A DNA stretch of 61,736 bases from Jacunavirus JC01 (taxonomy: Duplodnaviria > Heunggongvirae > Uroviricota > Caudoviricetes > Casjensviridae). Of this stretch, positions 13 to 61,736 are shown piece after piece. The stretch lies in IMG/VR virus record IMGVR_UViG_2974716774_000001, positions 1 to 61,736 of that record. One strand, written 5' to 3'. The notes below the pieces were generated by a model. The model was not told the DNA's origin, did not search any database, and saw nothing but the letters and a program-made list of their open reading frames with translations. The translations under genes were made by a program, and so were the position numbers. Each line of letters opens with the position of its first letter. Within the stretch, counting starts at the first letter, position 1.

Positions 13-477
13 CGCGATTCGCGAAAAATTGCCGGTTCCTGTATAGCGCCGCCTTGAAAATCAGCAACTTACGTGGGGCCGCCGGTGGGCTTAGCGTAGC
101 TAACAGGATAATTTTTCAGAAATTCGTCGATAGCCCCGCATTGAAAGTTTTTATTTATCAGCGACTTACAGGCCGCGGTCATCTCGACGGCACAGTGTGT
201 TTCCGGAAACACAGATTTGCCGTATTAAGTGTGTCGGTCAAAAAGCCTTACTGTACAAGGATTTACTATACTCTTAACACACTAACACACAGACACACTT
301 AATGTGTATATAAGGTAAGTAGGTATTGTGTGATGATCGTAATGGCGTTTCACGTTACGTATTATATGTATGTATTAGCGAGTTTTGAGAGTAAGTGTGT
401 CATGGTGAAAGTGCCGAAAAAGTCATGCAGATCATAGGTTTACCCGGCACACCCATTTTTAGCGGAGGGTGTGTCGC

Positions 478-514
478 CCAAAAACCAAAAAACAAAAACG
501 GGGCCGAAGCCCCG
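478..514 (-). terminator. Rho-independent terminator ending the leftward primase operon
   Basis: Hairpin CGGGGC-CGAA-GCCCCG at 499-514; on the minus strand it is followed by a long T-rich run (complement of the A-rich 478-498). Confidence 0.6.
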
Positions 515-548
515 AATTGGATGTGACGCGCGGATCCGCAATGCACTT

Positions 549-3182
549 TTACGCCCACGTATCGGCGACCTCCTTCGCGGCGCAAGACGCGATTTGTTCT
601 TCCAGGTGGAGTTTCATGGCGTCGTAGTCGATGGTGTCTTTGTCCTTCATCCACTTTTCAGGGTGGCGCATCCATACTGATCCACGAACCCCGTTGACGC
701 GCAGCTGAATACGCTTAACCGGCCCTTTCGAGTACCCCAGCGCTGACAGTCGTGATGCCACTCTGCTGTCACTAGGACGTATGTCACGGGGCACGCTGCG
801 CAGTAACAGTCCTGTGTGTATTAGCTCGTCCGTGACGCCCGCCACATCGTCAGACGCAATGGCGTCTTCCACGAAGTTCGTGAAGTCGTCCTGGGCGTTA
901 TCGATCATGTCGCTGGTGGCTTCAGTGAGCGGAGCAATACCGGAAGAGTGGTCGAAGTCCTCGCTGTATTCCCAGTCACGGAACCACAGCCGCAGCTCGC
1001 CAGCGCACGCCTTGAATGCCTTCTCGAAGTCTTTGAAGAAGCCGGGCTTGTCCTTCAGGAAAGCCATCGCGTCTTCCTTACTGCGAAAGCGAGACCGGAC
1101 TATCAGGAAACGACGGTCGCCATTGCTAATCGGCAGCGCGGCGATGTCGTTGGTGTACATCATCCAGCTGGCCGTGTTCACTTCGTCCTGACCTTCGCGG
1201 TTCTTCCTCTCGATGAAAAGCTGCTCGTTAGTGATAGGCTCCTTCAGGGAGTTAATGACGTCATAGCGGTGGCCCGCAACGCTGATTTCCTCGATGACCT
1301 TCAGCATCGACCCGGCCTGCCATCCCGTGAATGGCCGGTGGATAACCTGGTTGTTGACGGTGCCGACGTTTTCGCGGCCCAGCAGGTACGACATGAATTT
1401 CTTGATAATCGTCTTGCCGGAACCCTGGCCGCCGAGAATGACCAGCGAGTACGTCATGCGTTTGTTCGGGTTATTGATAACCCATGCCAGCCAGTCCATC
1501 GCGTGCCGGTACTCTTCCGGGTCGACGAACTGCGTGCGGAAAAAGTCCTGCACAATCTCAACGGCTTTAAGGCCTTTCTTAGAGATTTTCTCCGGCACTC
1601 CCGGCATCGTTTTCGGGTCAAACGTGTTCAGCCAGAGTTTTCCCTGCCACCGGAAAAAGTCTTCGCTTGGCACGCCGACCTCAGGCTTCCATGACGAACC
1701 TGGCATCCGGCCGTGCATGTCCGGGTAGTACATCATGCCGTGGATAATCGGCACCGGCCGCAAAGCGGTGGCGAATTGCTCAGGACTGCAGCCCATAAAT
1801 GCGGTATGCTGCGCCAGCGAGTTATTGAACGCGTGCGGCACCAGCGCAACTTTCGTCTCGCGGTTGATGAAGAGGTTATCTTTCTCGGCGTACACCCACG
1901 GCTCTATCCAGGCTGGCGCATCAAACTGCTTGTGGTCGACAGACAGTGCGTTGCGTTTGGTGGAAGCAGGGATTTTCTTGCCGGTAATACGTTTGTAGTT
2001 ATCACAGGCCAGCTCTACTGCGTGATCGCGAATGGTTCCCCAGACCGGTGTTTCGCGAAGTCGCTCAGCTGCGCGATCCCATTCGTACAGGTCTTCTGCC
2101 TGTTCGAACATCGGGATAACCCGCAGTAAGATGTCCTTTTCCATACGGGCATCCTCCACTTTCTTCACCAGACTTCTGACGGTGAAGGTGGCACCGCCGG
2201 TGCGGCGGAAATTCCCGTTATCCCATTTGTCGTTAAACGCGGCCTCGTCGTAGTTCGACGCGCGCGCTGACCACTCCTGCGCCAGCTCGCGAAACTCATC
2301 CTGCTCGCGCTCAGCGTCTTTGATGGCTGCGATGACCGGGAACCAGGCAGAATAGTCTTCCGCTGGTGGCAGGTCTTCCAGCAGGGCAGCAAACTCGGCG
2401 TACGTGCCGTCCCATTTATCTTTCGCGTCGTCTGCGTCTACCCAGTCGTCCTCGTCCACTTCGCCCAGGGCATCGGAGCGGTCTTCCGGCGCGCCGCCGA
2501 CGATTTTCCCGCGCTGCGGTGGCTCGTACAGCTTGTCGCCAGGCTGGATTTTTTCCCATCCCTGCTCCATCGCATAGCGGTCAAACTCATCCACGATGCG
2601 GCGCGCGTCGGCAAGGCTCAGCACTTCGAGATCCATGTCAGCGTGCATCGTCAGCGGCGTGTCTTTGCTGACCCACTGATACGGCTTCTGGGTGCCCGGG
2701 TGGATACCGAAGGCGACGAACTGCTGGCCAGCACCGAGGATTTCCACGGCGTTCTTCTCGCCGAAGTCATCGACCCAGCTGTGCGACTTCACTTTCGTGA
2801 ACGGTTCGTCAGCGCAGTAGACGAGCAGCGTTTTTGGCGCCCGGCCCACGCGAGCGGGTGCAAACCCCACGTTGGCTTCGATGAAATCGCGCATATGCTT
2901 CGCCGCGTCGACGTCCATGCAGTCAATATCGACCGCTGGCGTGAACCAGGTGCGGATGCCGATGCCGTAGCGGAAATATTTCTTCTGCCATTCCTCCAGC
3001 GCGTCTTCGTTAACTGCAACCGACTCCCAGTTTTTCATGAGCGGCGCTTTACCGGCCGCCTTGAAAGGCACCAGCTCACCGGTCTTTTTGTCGCGGATCT
3101 TCGCGTCAAGAGGGGAGATTGGAATAAAGGCATAGCCGTTTTCTAGCAACGTCCTGCCGTATTGCTGGAGATATCTTTTCAT
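549..3182 (-). CDS. DNA primase/helicase (P-loop NTPase, D5-like)
   Basis: 877-aa ORF; Walker A-like LVILGGQGSGKT; long N-terminal region preceding the NTPase domain; sits beside the polymerase module. Confidence 0.65.
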   Translation of the reverse strand: MKRYLQQYGRTLLENGYAFIPISPLDAKIRDKKTGELVPFKAAGKAPLMKNWESVAVNEDALEEWQKKYFRYGIGIRTWFTPAVDIDCMDVDAAKHMRDFIEANVGFAPARVGRAPKTLLVYCADEPFTKVKSHSWVDDFGEKNAVEILGAGQQFVAFGIHPGTQKPYQWVSKDTPLTMHADMDLEVLSLADARRIVDEFDRYAMEQGWEKIQPGDKLYEPPQRGKIVGGAPEDRSDALGEVDEDDWVDADDAKDKWDGTYAEFAALLEDLPPAEDYSAWFPVIAAIKDAEREQDEFRELAQEWSARASNYDEAAFNDKWDNGNFRRTGGATFTVRSLVKKVEDARMEKDILLRVIPMFEQAEDLYEWDRAAERLRETPVWGTIRDHAVELACDNYKRITGKKIPASTKRNALSVDHKQFDAPAWIEPWVYAEKDNLFINRETKVALVPHAFNNSLAQHTAFMGCSPEQFATALRPVPIIHGMMYYPDMHGRMPGSSWKPEVGVPSEDFFRWQGKLWLNTFDPKTMPGVPEKISKKGLKAVEIVQDFFRTQFVDPEEYRHAMDWLAWVINNPNKRMTYSLVILGGQGSGKTIIKKFMSYLLGRENVGTVNNQVIHRPFTGWQAGSMLKVIEEISVAGHRYDVINSLKEPITNEQLFIERKNREGQDEVNTASWMMYTNDIAALPISNGDRRFLIVRSRFRSKEDAMAFLKDKPGFFKDFEKAFKACAGELRLWFRDWEYSEDFDHSSGIAPLTEATSDMIDNAQDDFTNFVEDAIASDDVAGVTDELIHTGLLLRSVPRDIRPSDSRVASRLSALGYSKGPVKRIQLRVNGVRGSVWMRHPEKWMKDKDTIDYDAMKLHLEEQIASCAAKEVADTWA

Positions 3183-3460
3183 TCAAGCACCTCGCCTTCA
3201 GCATCAAACCGCATGGCTTCCGGCGCCATTAACCAGGTCGCCTTCACTCCCGAACCGCTGGCCGCCGAGGCGAGCGCGGTGGCAACACGGTATGACATGC
3301 GTCCGGCTTCCTGTGCTTTCAGTGCTGTGTGGTAATTCACATCGGCGAGGCGGGATAGTTGCTGCATTGACCCGTCCCGGTGGGCGTAGGCAGACATAAT
3401 CATGCACAGGTACTTCAGTCGCATGTATTTGTCTTTGCGTGCCCAGTCTGGAAAGCGCAT
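3179..3460 (-). CDS. Hypothetical protein, first gene of leftward operon (possible HTH)
   Basis: 93-aa ORF overlapping primase start by 4 nt; segment SMQQLSRLADVNYHTALKAQ looks helix-turn-helix-like. Confidence 0.45.
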   Translation of the reverse strand: MRFPDWARKDKYMRLKYLCMIMSAYAHRDGSMQQLSRLADVNYHTALKAQEAGRMSYRVATALASAASGSGVKATWLMAPEAMRFDAEGEVLE

Positions 3461-10073: not shown

Positions 10074-10667
10074 ATGGTGGCGAAAAACAAAAATGCACCG
10101 ATGGCGCTAAGGGCGCGCCGGTCTAACCAGAACGACTCTGAAACCGAGTCGATGATATTCCAGGGCGCGAACATCACGCAGCTCGGGAAACTGTTTCGCA
10201 TGGATCGCCGCGACATCACGCCGAAAATAATGGACGTGGCGCCGTGTGGCGAGCGCGGCGGATACCCCATCTACTACGTCCATGAAGTCGCGCCGCACCT
10301 GGTGAAGCCGATATACGACGTCGAGACCTACCTCAAGCGAATGCACCCGAACGATCTGCCAAAACATCTGACGAAAGAGTTTTGGGGCGGGATGCGCGCC
10401 AAGCAGGAGTACGACAAGGAAGCGGGCAACCTGTGGGAGACGGATAAAGTCATCGCGATAATGAGCGAAGTTTTCAAAGTCCTGCGAATGTCTATCCTGC
10501 TGGCCGGTGACACCGTGGAGCGCGAAATCGCTTTCACCGCTGAACAACGCGAGAAGCTTCGCGTTATTCTCGACGGCGCGCTGCAGGAATGCGCTAACGG
10601 CCTGGTAAACCGCTTCGGCCCTGAGGCTGAGAAAGAGCAGGAGCAGGACGATGACGACGAAATATAA
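10074..10667 (+). CDS. Terminase small subunit (Nu1-like, putative)
   Basis: 197-aa ORF immediately upstream of and overlapping the large terminase; N-terminal region resembles the lambda Nu1 winged-HTH; acidic C-terminus QDDDDEI. Confidence 0.5.
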   Translation: MVAKNKNAPMALRARRSNQNDSETESMIFQGANITQLGKLFRMDRRDITPKIMDVAPCGERGGYPIYYVHEVAPHLVKPIYDVETYLKRMHPNDLPKHLTKEFWGGMRAKQEYDKEAGNLWETDKVIAIMSEVFKVLRMSILLAGDTVEREIAFTAEQREKLRVILDGALQECANGLVNRFGPEAEKEQEQDDDDEI

Positions 10668-44385: not shown

Positions 44386-44414
44386 ATTATGATTATACAC
44401 TTCATGTGTGTCAA
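44386..44414 (-). promoter_or_regulatory. Sigma70-type promoter with embedded dyad (family member)
   Basis: Minus strand TTGACA-CACATGAAGTGTATAAT-CATAAT; 17-nt spacer contains ACAC-N5-GTGT. Confidence 0.45.
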
Positions 44415-61115: not shown

Positions 61116-61156
61116 CTGATATCCATTCCTTCCCGTCTCTCATCCGGCCCGCCCTG

Positions 61157-61183
61157 CGCGGGCTTTTTTATTTCCGCTATTCC
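61157..61183 (+). terminator. Rho-independent terminator
   Basis: Stem GCCCGC / GCGGGC, loop CCTGC, followed by TTTTTTATTT; near-copy of the 59278-59303 terminator. Confidence 0.65.
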
Positions 61184-61343
61184 GCCACGCTTTGACCTTT
61201 ATCCGACTTGTGCGACGAACGCCCTGGTTTTGGATTCAATTCTAATTATCACGCATGTTATTAGTTAGCCGTGCCCGTTGCCACGTTGCAGCGTGCGCCC
61301 TGCGATGCGCCCTGTAAGCGGGCCTGTGATACGGGCCAGTGCT

Positions 61344-61445
61344 CACACACTTCGGATGTGTCATGGGTGGCTGTGGTGCTGACACTTCGGATGTATCAAA
61401 GGCGCGGTGTGATTGTGACACGTTGATACACATGGAATGTGTCAT
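61344..61445. promoter_or_regulatory. Cluster of TGACAC/GTGTCA dyad elements (operator-like or packaging-recognition sites)
   Basis: CACACACTTCGGATGTGTCA (61344-61363), TGACACTTCGGATGTATCA (about 61380-61398), GTGACACGTTGATACACA and AATGTGTCATG (about 61412-61445). Confidence 0.4.
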
Positions 61446-61724
61446 GCCTGCGGCTGTGCTGTGGTACGGATGATGCCGCGTGCCCTGGTGTGGTGGGCTG
61501 GTGGATAGCCCTGATAATACCCTTTCTCCTGATGTTCTGTGATGCGGTGTGACAACCGCACTATCTGATGCCCATAGAAGGCCGATAAACGAGGCTGTGC
61601 GGGCCGATCTATGCTGTGCCTATGATACCCTATTGCTTCTGTGCTTGCGTGGCGTGTGGTGCGCGCTGTGCGTTATTCCGCGAAAGCCGAAAAGGTACTT
61701 CCCCGGCCAGGCCGGAAAGCCGGG

Positions 61725-61736
61725 GGTGCGCAGAGC
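61725..61736. repeat. Terminal 12-bp direct repeat GGTGCGCAGAGC, right copy (putative cohesive end)
   Basis: Exact copy of bases 1-12 at the last 12 positions of the window. Confidence 0.6.

Follow-up and report, generated by a model that had tools for sequence, protein, structure and literature searches.

In phage lambda, cosB has the order R3-I1-R2-R1 and stands beside cosN, and ori lies within the O gene, the product of which recruits the host DnaB through P. In the alpha protein of phage P4, a primase, an SF3 helicase and a C-terminal domain for origin binding are joined in one polypeptide, which recognises both direct and inverted octamer repeats. The P4 alpha primase is of the Toprim type (PMC4234260). 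Origins of the Staphylococcus aureus pathogenicity islands (SaPIs) are found directly downstream of rep, with iterons that flank an AT-rich region in opposite directions; these iterons are read by the C-terminal winged-helix domain of an SF3 helicase, which is fused to a primase in SaPI5 (PMC9371898). In pRN1 the origin is located just 3' of orf904 (prim/pol, SF3 helicase and C-terminal winged helix), past a terminator (PMC4234260). Here we analyse the left end of Jacunavirus JC01 DNA, positions 13–548 of a stretch of 61,736 nucleotides (the window, i.e. the whole of the DNA analysed), between the cohesive end and a primase-helicase gene. We read it as three cis-acting modules of known kinds, namely a cosB-like region (13 to about 190), a phage replication origin (about 190–480) and a terminator (478–514). 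On grounds of sequence and analogy we give this reading, and likewise the origin assignment taken by itself, a probability of roughly 60%.

Genome ends and relatives

The 12-nt cohesive end GGTGCGCAGAGC (cosN) occupies positions 1–12, and an identical copy is present at 61725–61736. The same 12 bases are the experimentally determined cohesive end of Salmonella phage Chi (PMC4342425) and are also given for Cronobacter phage JC01 (MT330372; PMC9759504). The window covers the genome of Cronobacter phage JC01, a cos phage of the Chi-like group, in full. Its annotation places a primase at 549–3182, gp3 at 3179–3460 and gp1 at 333–437 (supplement of PMC9759504); for the left end, the JC01 paper has nothing beyond the annotated 34-aa gp1, which is without a database match (PMC9759504).

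When the phage collection was searched at the DNA level, 481–668 was the only part of the left end that matched any record. The nearest record, Salmonella phage BAU.Micro_SLP-22 (Jacunavirus, OR699283.2; SLP-22 in the following), is about 71% identical and only from 481 rightwards. Because direct DNA similarity was too limited, relatives were reached through the primase protein, which was used as the query to retrieve left ends from IMG/VR contigs and GenBank phages of several genera (L numbers denote such records below). Several of the left ends retrieved extend to or across cos. About 20 relatives were compared over 13–548, and the layout was tabulated for 17 lineages from 8 named genera (Chivirus, Jacunavirus, Cenphatecvirus, Yonseivirus and Newforgelanevirus, with unclassified contigs; Gwanakrovirus only in part, since its record stops at the tandem repeats).

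The putative replication origin

The region from about 190 to 480 is dominated by short repeats. Six of the 11 exact genomic copies of WGTGTGTY are within it (291 bp; binomial P about 5e-12), and the three exact genomic copies of TAAGTGTGTC are all inside 226–401. The repeats start 73 nt past the primase stop codon and are in opposite orientation across an AT-rich centre: on the cos side are those at 276–299 (minus strand) together with 194, 206 and 228, on the primase side those at 394 (+) and 468 (+). The arms of the inverted repeat I1 (280–301 and 392–413) are 90 nt apart, and relatives show the same inverted arrangement.

The GC content of 100-nt windows falls to 0.33–0.41 between about 200 and 450, compared with 0.585 genome-wide, and 238–400 contains the least stable 100–150 bp of the 61.7 kb (nearest-neighbour dG −1.20 against a mean of −1.52, more than 4 standard deviations). 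The AT-rich block that the initial annotation had placed at 230–420 is therefore real and extreme for this genome, and its repeat GTATTATATGTATGTATT was found at 359–376; that annotation saw the block and the repeats but did not recognise them as an inverted array around a core, 3' of a primase-helicase gene.

Since inverted iterons flank an easily melted core immediately 3' of a Prim-Pol/SF3 gene, as in SaPI origins, the region is probably an origin. Four features expected for the origin of a self-loading primase-helicase were found, namely a site 3' of the candidate initiator gene, inverted repeats, an easily melted centre and lineage-specific repeats. In the mechanism we propose, the primase-helicase encoded alongside would bind the iterons, most likely via its C-terminal domain. 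After assembly on each flank, the protein would open the AT core of about 90 bp and prime DNA synthesis, so that initiation would proceed as for SaPI Rep/PriRep and P4 alpha.

From the primase stop to cos, the relatives share one order: a terminator hairpin with T-run, in some lineages a helix-turn-helix (HTH) gene, at least one short repeat, an AT core of about 90–100 bp, two to three inverted tandem repeats, an RGTAGTAR-type purine stretch, further repeats that are often dyads, a conserved block and cosN. In all of them the module is located directly 3' of a Prim-Pol/SF3-type primase gene, save for the HTH gene inserted in some. The approximately 100 nt beside the tandem iterons are 60–77% A+T in 17/17 lineages, and the purine-rich stretch with its RGTAGTAR core follows behind the tandem iterons in 17/17, independent of the iteron sequence. 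For the catalytic part of the primase, which is conserved, the latter element (246–275 in JC01) could serve as the site of priming or of helicase loading. The core itself (300–391) is poorly conserved in sequence among relatives, with composition and length retained.

Within this constant layout there are at least 12 repeat types among the lineages. These are GTGTGTY (JC01, L010, L011, L012), GTGTGAC (L013), CAGTGCAA (L014), GTGTGCC (Proteus phage Saba), TTGTAAC (Chi, YSD1, L018–L020), TTGTTAC (L016), TTCTTAC (L023), CTGTTAC (FSL SP-030), CTGTAAC (L021), TTGTAAT (Klebsiella phage N98), CTTAGGG (Pectobacterium phage MA12) and ATGGGAC (Erwinia phage pEp_SNUABM_08). In Chi, 9 of the 17 genomic copies of GTTACA/TGTAAC fall at 226–503. 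An architecture that is conserved while its short repeat changes indicates a phage-encoded, fast-evolving sequence reader.

In Chi-type phages a highly variable HTH gene, encoded on the opposite strand, fills the slot that separates the iterons from the primase terminator (Cro/CI or HTH_37-type; L007 614–901 and equivalents in L017, L018, L020, L023 and L029; 95, 110, 113 or 189 aa). It is absent from JC01-type phages, L016, L021 and N98 and looks like an exchangeable accessory regulator.

Candidate reader of the repeats

A comparison of phages YSD1 and FSL SP-030 (to which L017 is 100% identical) bears on the identity of the reader. Their gp3-like proteins and their small terminase subunits (TerS) are 100% identical, and six other left-arm proteins compared are 94–99% identical. 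The primases are 94–100% identical to about residue 700 and then diverge, with 82, 62, 68 and 33% identity in successive 50-residue windows (the last one shorter) over the final approximately 160 residues. At the DNA level, identity is 32–72% over the stretch that begins with the primase C-terminal domain and ends about 200 nt short of cos, and returns to 94–99% over the last 200 nt or so. The iteron is TTGTAAC in YSD1 and CTGTTAC in FSL SP-030. As judged from these alignments, the replaced cassette starts with the primase C-terminal domain, takes in the HTH gene together with the repeat/AT-rich module, and ends at the cosB boundary. The repeats appear to move with the primase C-terminal domain as one specificity cassette, which would explain why the left end is a hotspot of mosaic exchange.

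As gp3 and TerS are identical in the two phages and the repeats differ, neither sets the repeat specificity; the gp3-like 'transcriptional regulator' and TerS were both rejected as readers. The HTH protein of the gp1 slot was rejected as well: Chi and L020 share their iterons and have 99% identical primases, yet their HTH proteins differ, and JC01 has no HTH gene.

The primase C-terminal domain is the candidate we prefer, with chances that we regard as about even, given the swap, the structure model and the analogy to known initiators. An AlphaFold2 model of the domain had a pLDDT of 82.6, and its fold matches were mostly winged-helix DNA binders, but weak. Sequence searches with the domain returned no match in the PDB and only 2 in a large protein database; with so few matches, the model rests on a 15-sequence alignment.

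The region could be an origin in which another phage protein, perhaps a product of the right arm, reads the iterons and then recruits the primase-helicase. The imperfect correlation between C-terminal domain and iteron, the weakness of the winged-helix assignment and the thirty-odd right-arm genes without known function all leave room for such a protein. We nevertheless hold it unlikely: gp3, TerS, the HTH protein of the gp1 slot and the replication proteins of the left arm are excluded as determinants of specificity, the swapped module begins at a primase domain boundary, and there is precedent for self-loading primase-helicases.

Relation to the early-promoter dyads

Eight genomic sites match the 21-bp dyad TGAYACAC-N5-GTGTRTCA with at most two mismatches, compared with 0.03 expected by chance. 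Six of these span the −35 hexamer and spacer of strong sigma-70-like promoters (TTGACA ... TAnnnT) at 44393, 44990, 49996, 57295, 59374 and 59848; promoter-borne dyads are confined to the 44–60 kb region. A dyad common to six promoters implies one repressor controlling early or right-arm transcription units. This promoter dyad type is kept in Chi and SLP-22.

The initial annotation had assigned the dyad ACACACTTAATGTGTAT at 293–309 to the family of the promoter operators. The dyad is there and its resemblance to the promoter dyads is real but weak, as 291–311 deviates from TGAYACAC-N5-GTGTRTCA by 3 mismatches, only one of them outside the right arm, and falls outside the two-mismatch limit. 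Membership in the operator family does not hold. The dyad right arm is not conserved in L010, L011 and L012, the closest relatives; a promoter is missing; and in Chi (TTGTAAC) and L013 the left-end repeats are unlike these phages' own promoter dyads, which stay JC01-type. For these reasons the best account of the dyad, from sequence comparison, is a last tandem iteron that continues into the AT-rich block, and not a conserved operator.

The resemblance also underlies an alternative in which the repeats as a whole are sites of the regulator of the early-promoter dyads, be it as orphan operators, as a titration sink or as the control region of a weak leftward promoter with the −10-like TATAGT (261–266, minus strand). 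It is consistent with the JC01 iteron core GACACAC, which is the operator half-site core, with the three-mismatch match at 291–311, with true but promoter-less dyads across cos (61343–61444) and with a TATAGT or TATAGA hexamer behind the tandem repeats in JC01, Chi, L020 and L021. However, no sigma-70 promoter was predicted on either strand of 1–1200, and a leftward promoter using TATAGT was considered and rejected in the lack of an acceptable −35. With the right arm missing from three relatives and left-end repeats that differ from the operator dyads in Chi, L013 and others, and with repeats that track the swapped primase-end segment, not a conserved regulator, we deem this explanation as improbable as a separate reader of the iterons.

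A related proposal is that in JC01-type phages one protein reads both the origin repeat core (GACACAC) and the dyads with the same half-site, at the six early promoters and, without promoters, at three places across cos; we consider this improbable. If the proposal were true, either the primase-helicase would, like the SV40 T-antigen, also shut off early promoters, or the early repressor would also gate origin firing. In both cases the circularised cos junction would be the place at which early transcription gives way to replication in a coupled switch.

The promoter-less dyads at 61343–61444 comprise two and a partial third (TCACACAC-TTCGG-ATGTGTCA, TGACAC-TTCGG-ATGTATCA and TGATACAC-ATGGA-ATGTGTCA). 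At the right end there are four such dyads in Chi and at least two each in L013 and SLP-22. Candidate functions are a sink, a roadblock before cos, or a part of the packaging/replication zone.

The cosB-like module and the terminator

The first approximately 190 bp, which the initial annotation had treated together with the remainder of 13–548 as one left-end region, form a separate conserved module. Direct-repeat families D1, D2 and D4 recur in 13–190 with a spacing of 87–97 nt. The blocks of the module are kept in JC01 and L010–L013, and family-wide together with cosN; the conserved block before cosN contains ATAGCCCCGC and ATCAAYRACTTAC, twice. ATCARYRACTTA, which is conserved, fits the consensus WATCARNNNNTTR of integration host factor (IHF) perfectly. 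Of the four perfect WATCARNNNNTTR matches in the genome, two are in this module (Table 1), in answer to the IHF-site prediction proposed in the initial annotation, and the copy at about 59 is family-wide. As in lambda-type cosB, an IHF site and repeated elements (ATAGCNCCGC at 43–52 and 130–139) are found within about 200 bp of cosN. Given this conservation and the lambda model, the module resembles lambda cosB and is a putative terminase recognition region. TerS on the ATAGCNCCGC elements, aided by an IHF-induced bend, would place the large subunit on cosN.

One may ask whether 13–480 is instead a single extended packaging signal, with the GTGTGT repeats and the AT-rich bend as extra sites for terminase or a packaging accessory. 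The stretch is close to cosN, lambda cosB likewise joins repeats with an IHF bend, and lineage-specific repeats are known from the cosB sites of lambda versus phage 21. Against this, the iterons change within a family that keeps cosN, the ATAGCNCCGC elements and the IHF match throughout; TerS is 100% identical in YSD1 and FSL SP-030, in which the iterons differ and the replacement stops about 200 nt before cos; and the repeats reach 190–480 bp from the end, past the usual span of a cosB. We rate a single packaging signal a little lower than the two alternatives discussed above.

At the other end of the region, the strong leftward terminator that had been recognised at 478–514 is real, and its position is conserved in all relatives. 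The minus-strand stem CGGGGC-UUCG-GCCCCG (499–514; 6 bp, all GC, with a UUCG loop) is followed by GUUUUUGUUUUUUGGUUUUU to 478. It is located 35 nt past the primase stop at 549 and is leftward-only, as the plus strand has no T-run. A hairpin with T-run stands behind the primase stop in every lineage, and the stems differ (GGGGCTTCGGCCCC, GGGCCTTCGGGCCC, GGCCGGGAAATCCGGCC, GGGGAGCGAAAAGCTCCC and others). A GC-rich hairpin with a U-tract at the end of an operon, kept in position and structure but not in sequence, is what is expected of a rho-independent terminator. It would end the leftward gp3-primase transcript and so keep transcription out of the origin and cos. A rightward terminator is present at 61146–61164, so that gene blocks converge on the cos/origin zone from both sides and a terminator on each shields it from their transcription.

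Table 1. Features predicted at the left end of the JC01 genome and the adjoining gene
Feature	Position	Strand	Remarks
cosB-like module	13-190	+	two direct units: ATAGCNCCGC, then TTGAAA and IHF consensus
R-like element 1, ATAGCGCCGC	43-52	+	TAGCNCCNC at position 44 in nearly all relatives, Chi included
IHF consensus match 1, AATCAGCAACTTA	59-71	+	present at 59/60 in most relatives, Chi included
Palindrome TTAGC-GTA-GCTAA, between the two units	91-103		invariant TAGCTAyGCTA block in alignment A3
R-like element 2, ATAGCCCCGC	130-139	+	direct repeat; kept family-wide
IHF consensus match 2, TATCAGCGACTTA	156-168	+	second site inverted in Chi-type phages
Putative outer iterons, cos side	194-235		AGTGTGTT (194-201, +) inside palindrome TGTGTTTCC/GGAAACACA (196-213); TAAGTGTGTC (226-235, +)
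Purine-rich element, AAGAGTATAGTAAATCCTTGTACAGTAAGG on the minus strand	246-275	-	adjoins tandem iterons; RGTAGTAR-type stretch kept
Three putative tandem 8-bp iterons, AGTGTGTC TGTGTGTT AGTGTGTT on the minus strand	276-299	-	tandem position shared by all relatives
AT-rich core, candidate DNA-unwinding element	300-391		dyad right arm 304-309; GTATTATATGTATGTATT run 359-376; conserved GAGTTTTGAGAG 380-391
Putative inner iteron TAAGTGTGTC, primase side	392-401	+	inverted relative to 292-301
Long-spaced inverted pair CGGCACACCC ... GGGTGTGTCG, weaker putative iterons	445-476		inverted repeat I16; equivalent in L010 GACACACC...GGTGTGTC
Intrinsic terminator of the gp3-primase operon	478-514	-	stem-loop 499-514, U-tract 498-478
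10-bp palindrome GCGGATCCGC, between primase stop and terminator	530-539		invariant in JC01 and L010-L013
Primase-helicase, 877 aa	549-3182	-	Prim-Pol, PriCT_2, DUF5906/SF3-like P-loop, C-terminal domain of about 180 aa; Pfam and PHROG matches

Coding potential

The first 550 bp had been called non-coding, and this call was upheld. The open reading frame (ORF) 54–302 begins with TTG and has no Shine-Dalgarno sequence upstream, and its GC content by codon position is flat (0.45/0.42/0.46 versus about 0.60/0.40/0.73 in real genes). It is not maintained as an ORF in L010, L012 and L021, so that conservation as a protein, which would have spoken for a gene, was not seen; tblastn gave weak similarity in L010–L012, coinciding with conserved DNA blocks. 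For gp1 (333–437, 34 aa) the best match in relatives was no better than E = 0.17. Neither ORF 54–302 nor gp1 matched Pfam or PHROG, and a search of Rfam yielded no RNA gene; its one match, to istR over the terminator, scored 17.5 bits and stayed below the threshold of 45. From these sequence criteria, no protein appears to be encoded in 13–548, and the deposited gp1, inside the AT-rich core, is very probably a mis-call. That the region encodes a product, be it ORF 54–302, gp1 or a small RNA, is accordingly the least probable explanation by far: both ORFs exist mechanically, gp1 is annotated in the JC01 record and ORF 54–302 has its tblastn similarity, but to conserved DNA elements, with gp1 lacking a BLAST match even in the JC01 authors' table.

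Further observations near cos

The GC-rich dyad CCCCGGCCAGGCCGGAAAGCCGGGG at 61700–61724 adjoins the right cos end on its left and is preceded by AAAAGGTACTTCCCCGG, which is kept in Chi and L013; the dyad is a candidate cosQ or cosN-flank element. In relatives GGATCCGG recurs about 25 nt from cosN, where JC01 has GGAACCGG.

The SLP-22 record (OR699283.2, L002/L003) is labelled a complete genome. Because it contains no cos sequence, starts within the left-end repeat module and stops within an operator dyad, it seems to lack the segments next to cos or to be a permuted assembly. Pectobacterium phage MA12 (L027) retains the module but differs at the cos position (…GAGGCTCCGCGCCCCC…), which points to a cohesive end of another sequence. 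In Aeromonas phage 13AC503A (L026) the primase is followed by more replication genes on the same strand, not by an origin/cos module.

Discussion

Several observations weigh against the three-module interpretation. There are no DnaA boxes in the region, and the iteron-flanked core folds as single-stranded DNA no more stably than shuffled sequence (z = 0.14); by the same value, a pRN1-type stem-loop origin was rejected. Our literature search found no description of an origin or a cos recognition region in Casjensviridae. A Nu1-family TerS gene, as lambda-type cosB would have it, is not present beside cos: the JC01 TerS (10074–10667) matches DUF1441 and phrog_141, and its gene is 10 kb away. The match between C-terminal domain and iteron is not one-to-one, as the domains of Chi and YSD1 are only about 70% identical and both phages have TTGTAAC. 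Since the domain and the iterons are adjacent, their co-replacement could be due to linkage alone. The YSD1/FSL SP-030 protein comparison covered the left arm, and another variable protein, encoded in the right arm, could be the binder.

The kinds of element proposed are known; as far as the literature was searched, their assignment in the Chi-like family is new. Chi-like phages (Casjensviridae) are widely isolated and have been proposed for biocontrol and therapy, JC01 included. A map of origin and cosB would aid the engineering of these phages, from the choice of safe insertion sites to the construction of minimal replicons and of cosmids or transducing vectors. The analysis also provides a correction of the annotation with respect to gp1, and a testable example of a putative self-loading Prim-Pol/SF3 initiator in a lytic enterobacterial phage.

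Compared with known systems, the proposed origin is closest in layout to those of SaPIs and other phage-inducible chromosomal islands (PICIs) with Rep or PriRep, with which JC01 shares an origin beside the initiator gene, inverted iterons around an AT centre, element-specific iterons and, by prediction, an SF3-type helicase. JC01, however, is a lytic cos siphovirus and not a satellite, and its primase domain is of the Prim-Pol/PriCT_2 type. Its iterons are 7–8 bp long, with a block of two to three in tandem on one flank only, and its putative origin abuts cosB. In SaPIs the reader is a winged-helix domain, whereas in JC01 a winged-helix fold of the C-terminal domain and its contact with the iterons are predictions.

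P4 alpha resembles the proposed JC01 initiator in that primase, SF3 helicase and C-terminal domain are joined in one protein and in the use of direct and inverted repeats. The two differ in the Toprim-type primase of P4 alpha and in the two separate repeat regions of P4, ori and crr, and no sequence similarity was detected between the C-terminal domain of the JC01 primase and P4 alpha. In pRN1 (orf56/orf904) the order of a small regulator gene, a primase-helicase gene, a terminator and an origin (in pRN1 within about 170 bp downstream) is as in JC01, but pRN1 is an archaeal plasmid and its origin a stem-loop of about 100 nt without iterons.

With lambda cosB, the JC01 module has in common that candidate sites for a protein are repeated and interleaved with the IHF consensus, all on one side of cosN and no more than about 170 bp from the nick. 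In JC01, unlike lambda, TerS belongs to DUF1441/phrog_141 and is encoded 10 kb away, there are two IHF matches, not one principal site, and the sites are predicted. The lambdoid ori/O system is also similar in having iterons by an AT-rich region with purine/pyrimidine strand asymmetry, and in the swapping of iteron and initiator specificity as modules; unlike in lambda, the putative origin of JC01 is intergenic, and the phage encodes its own primase-helicase.

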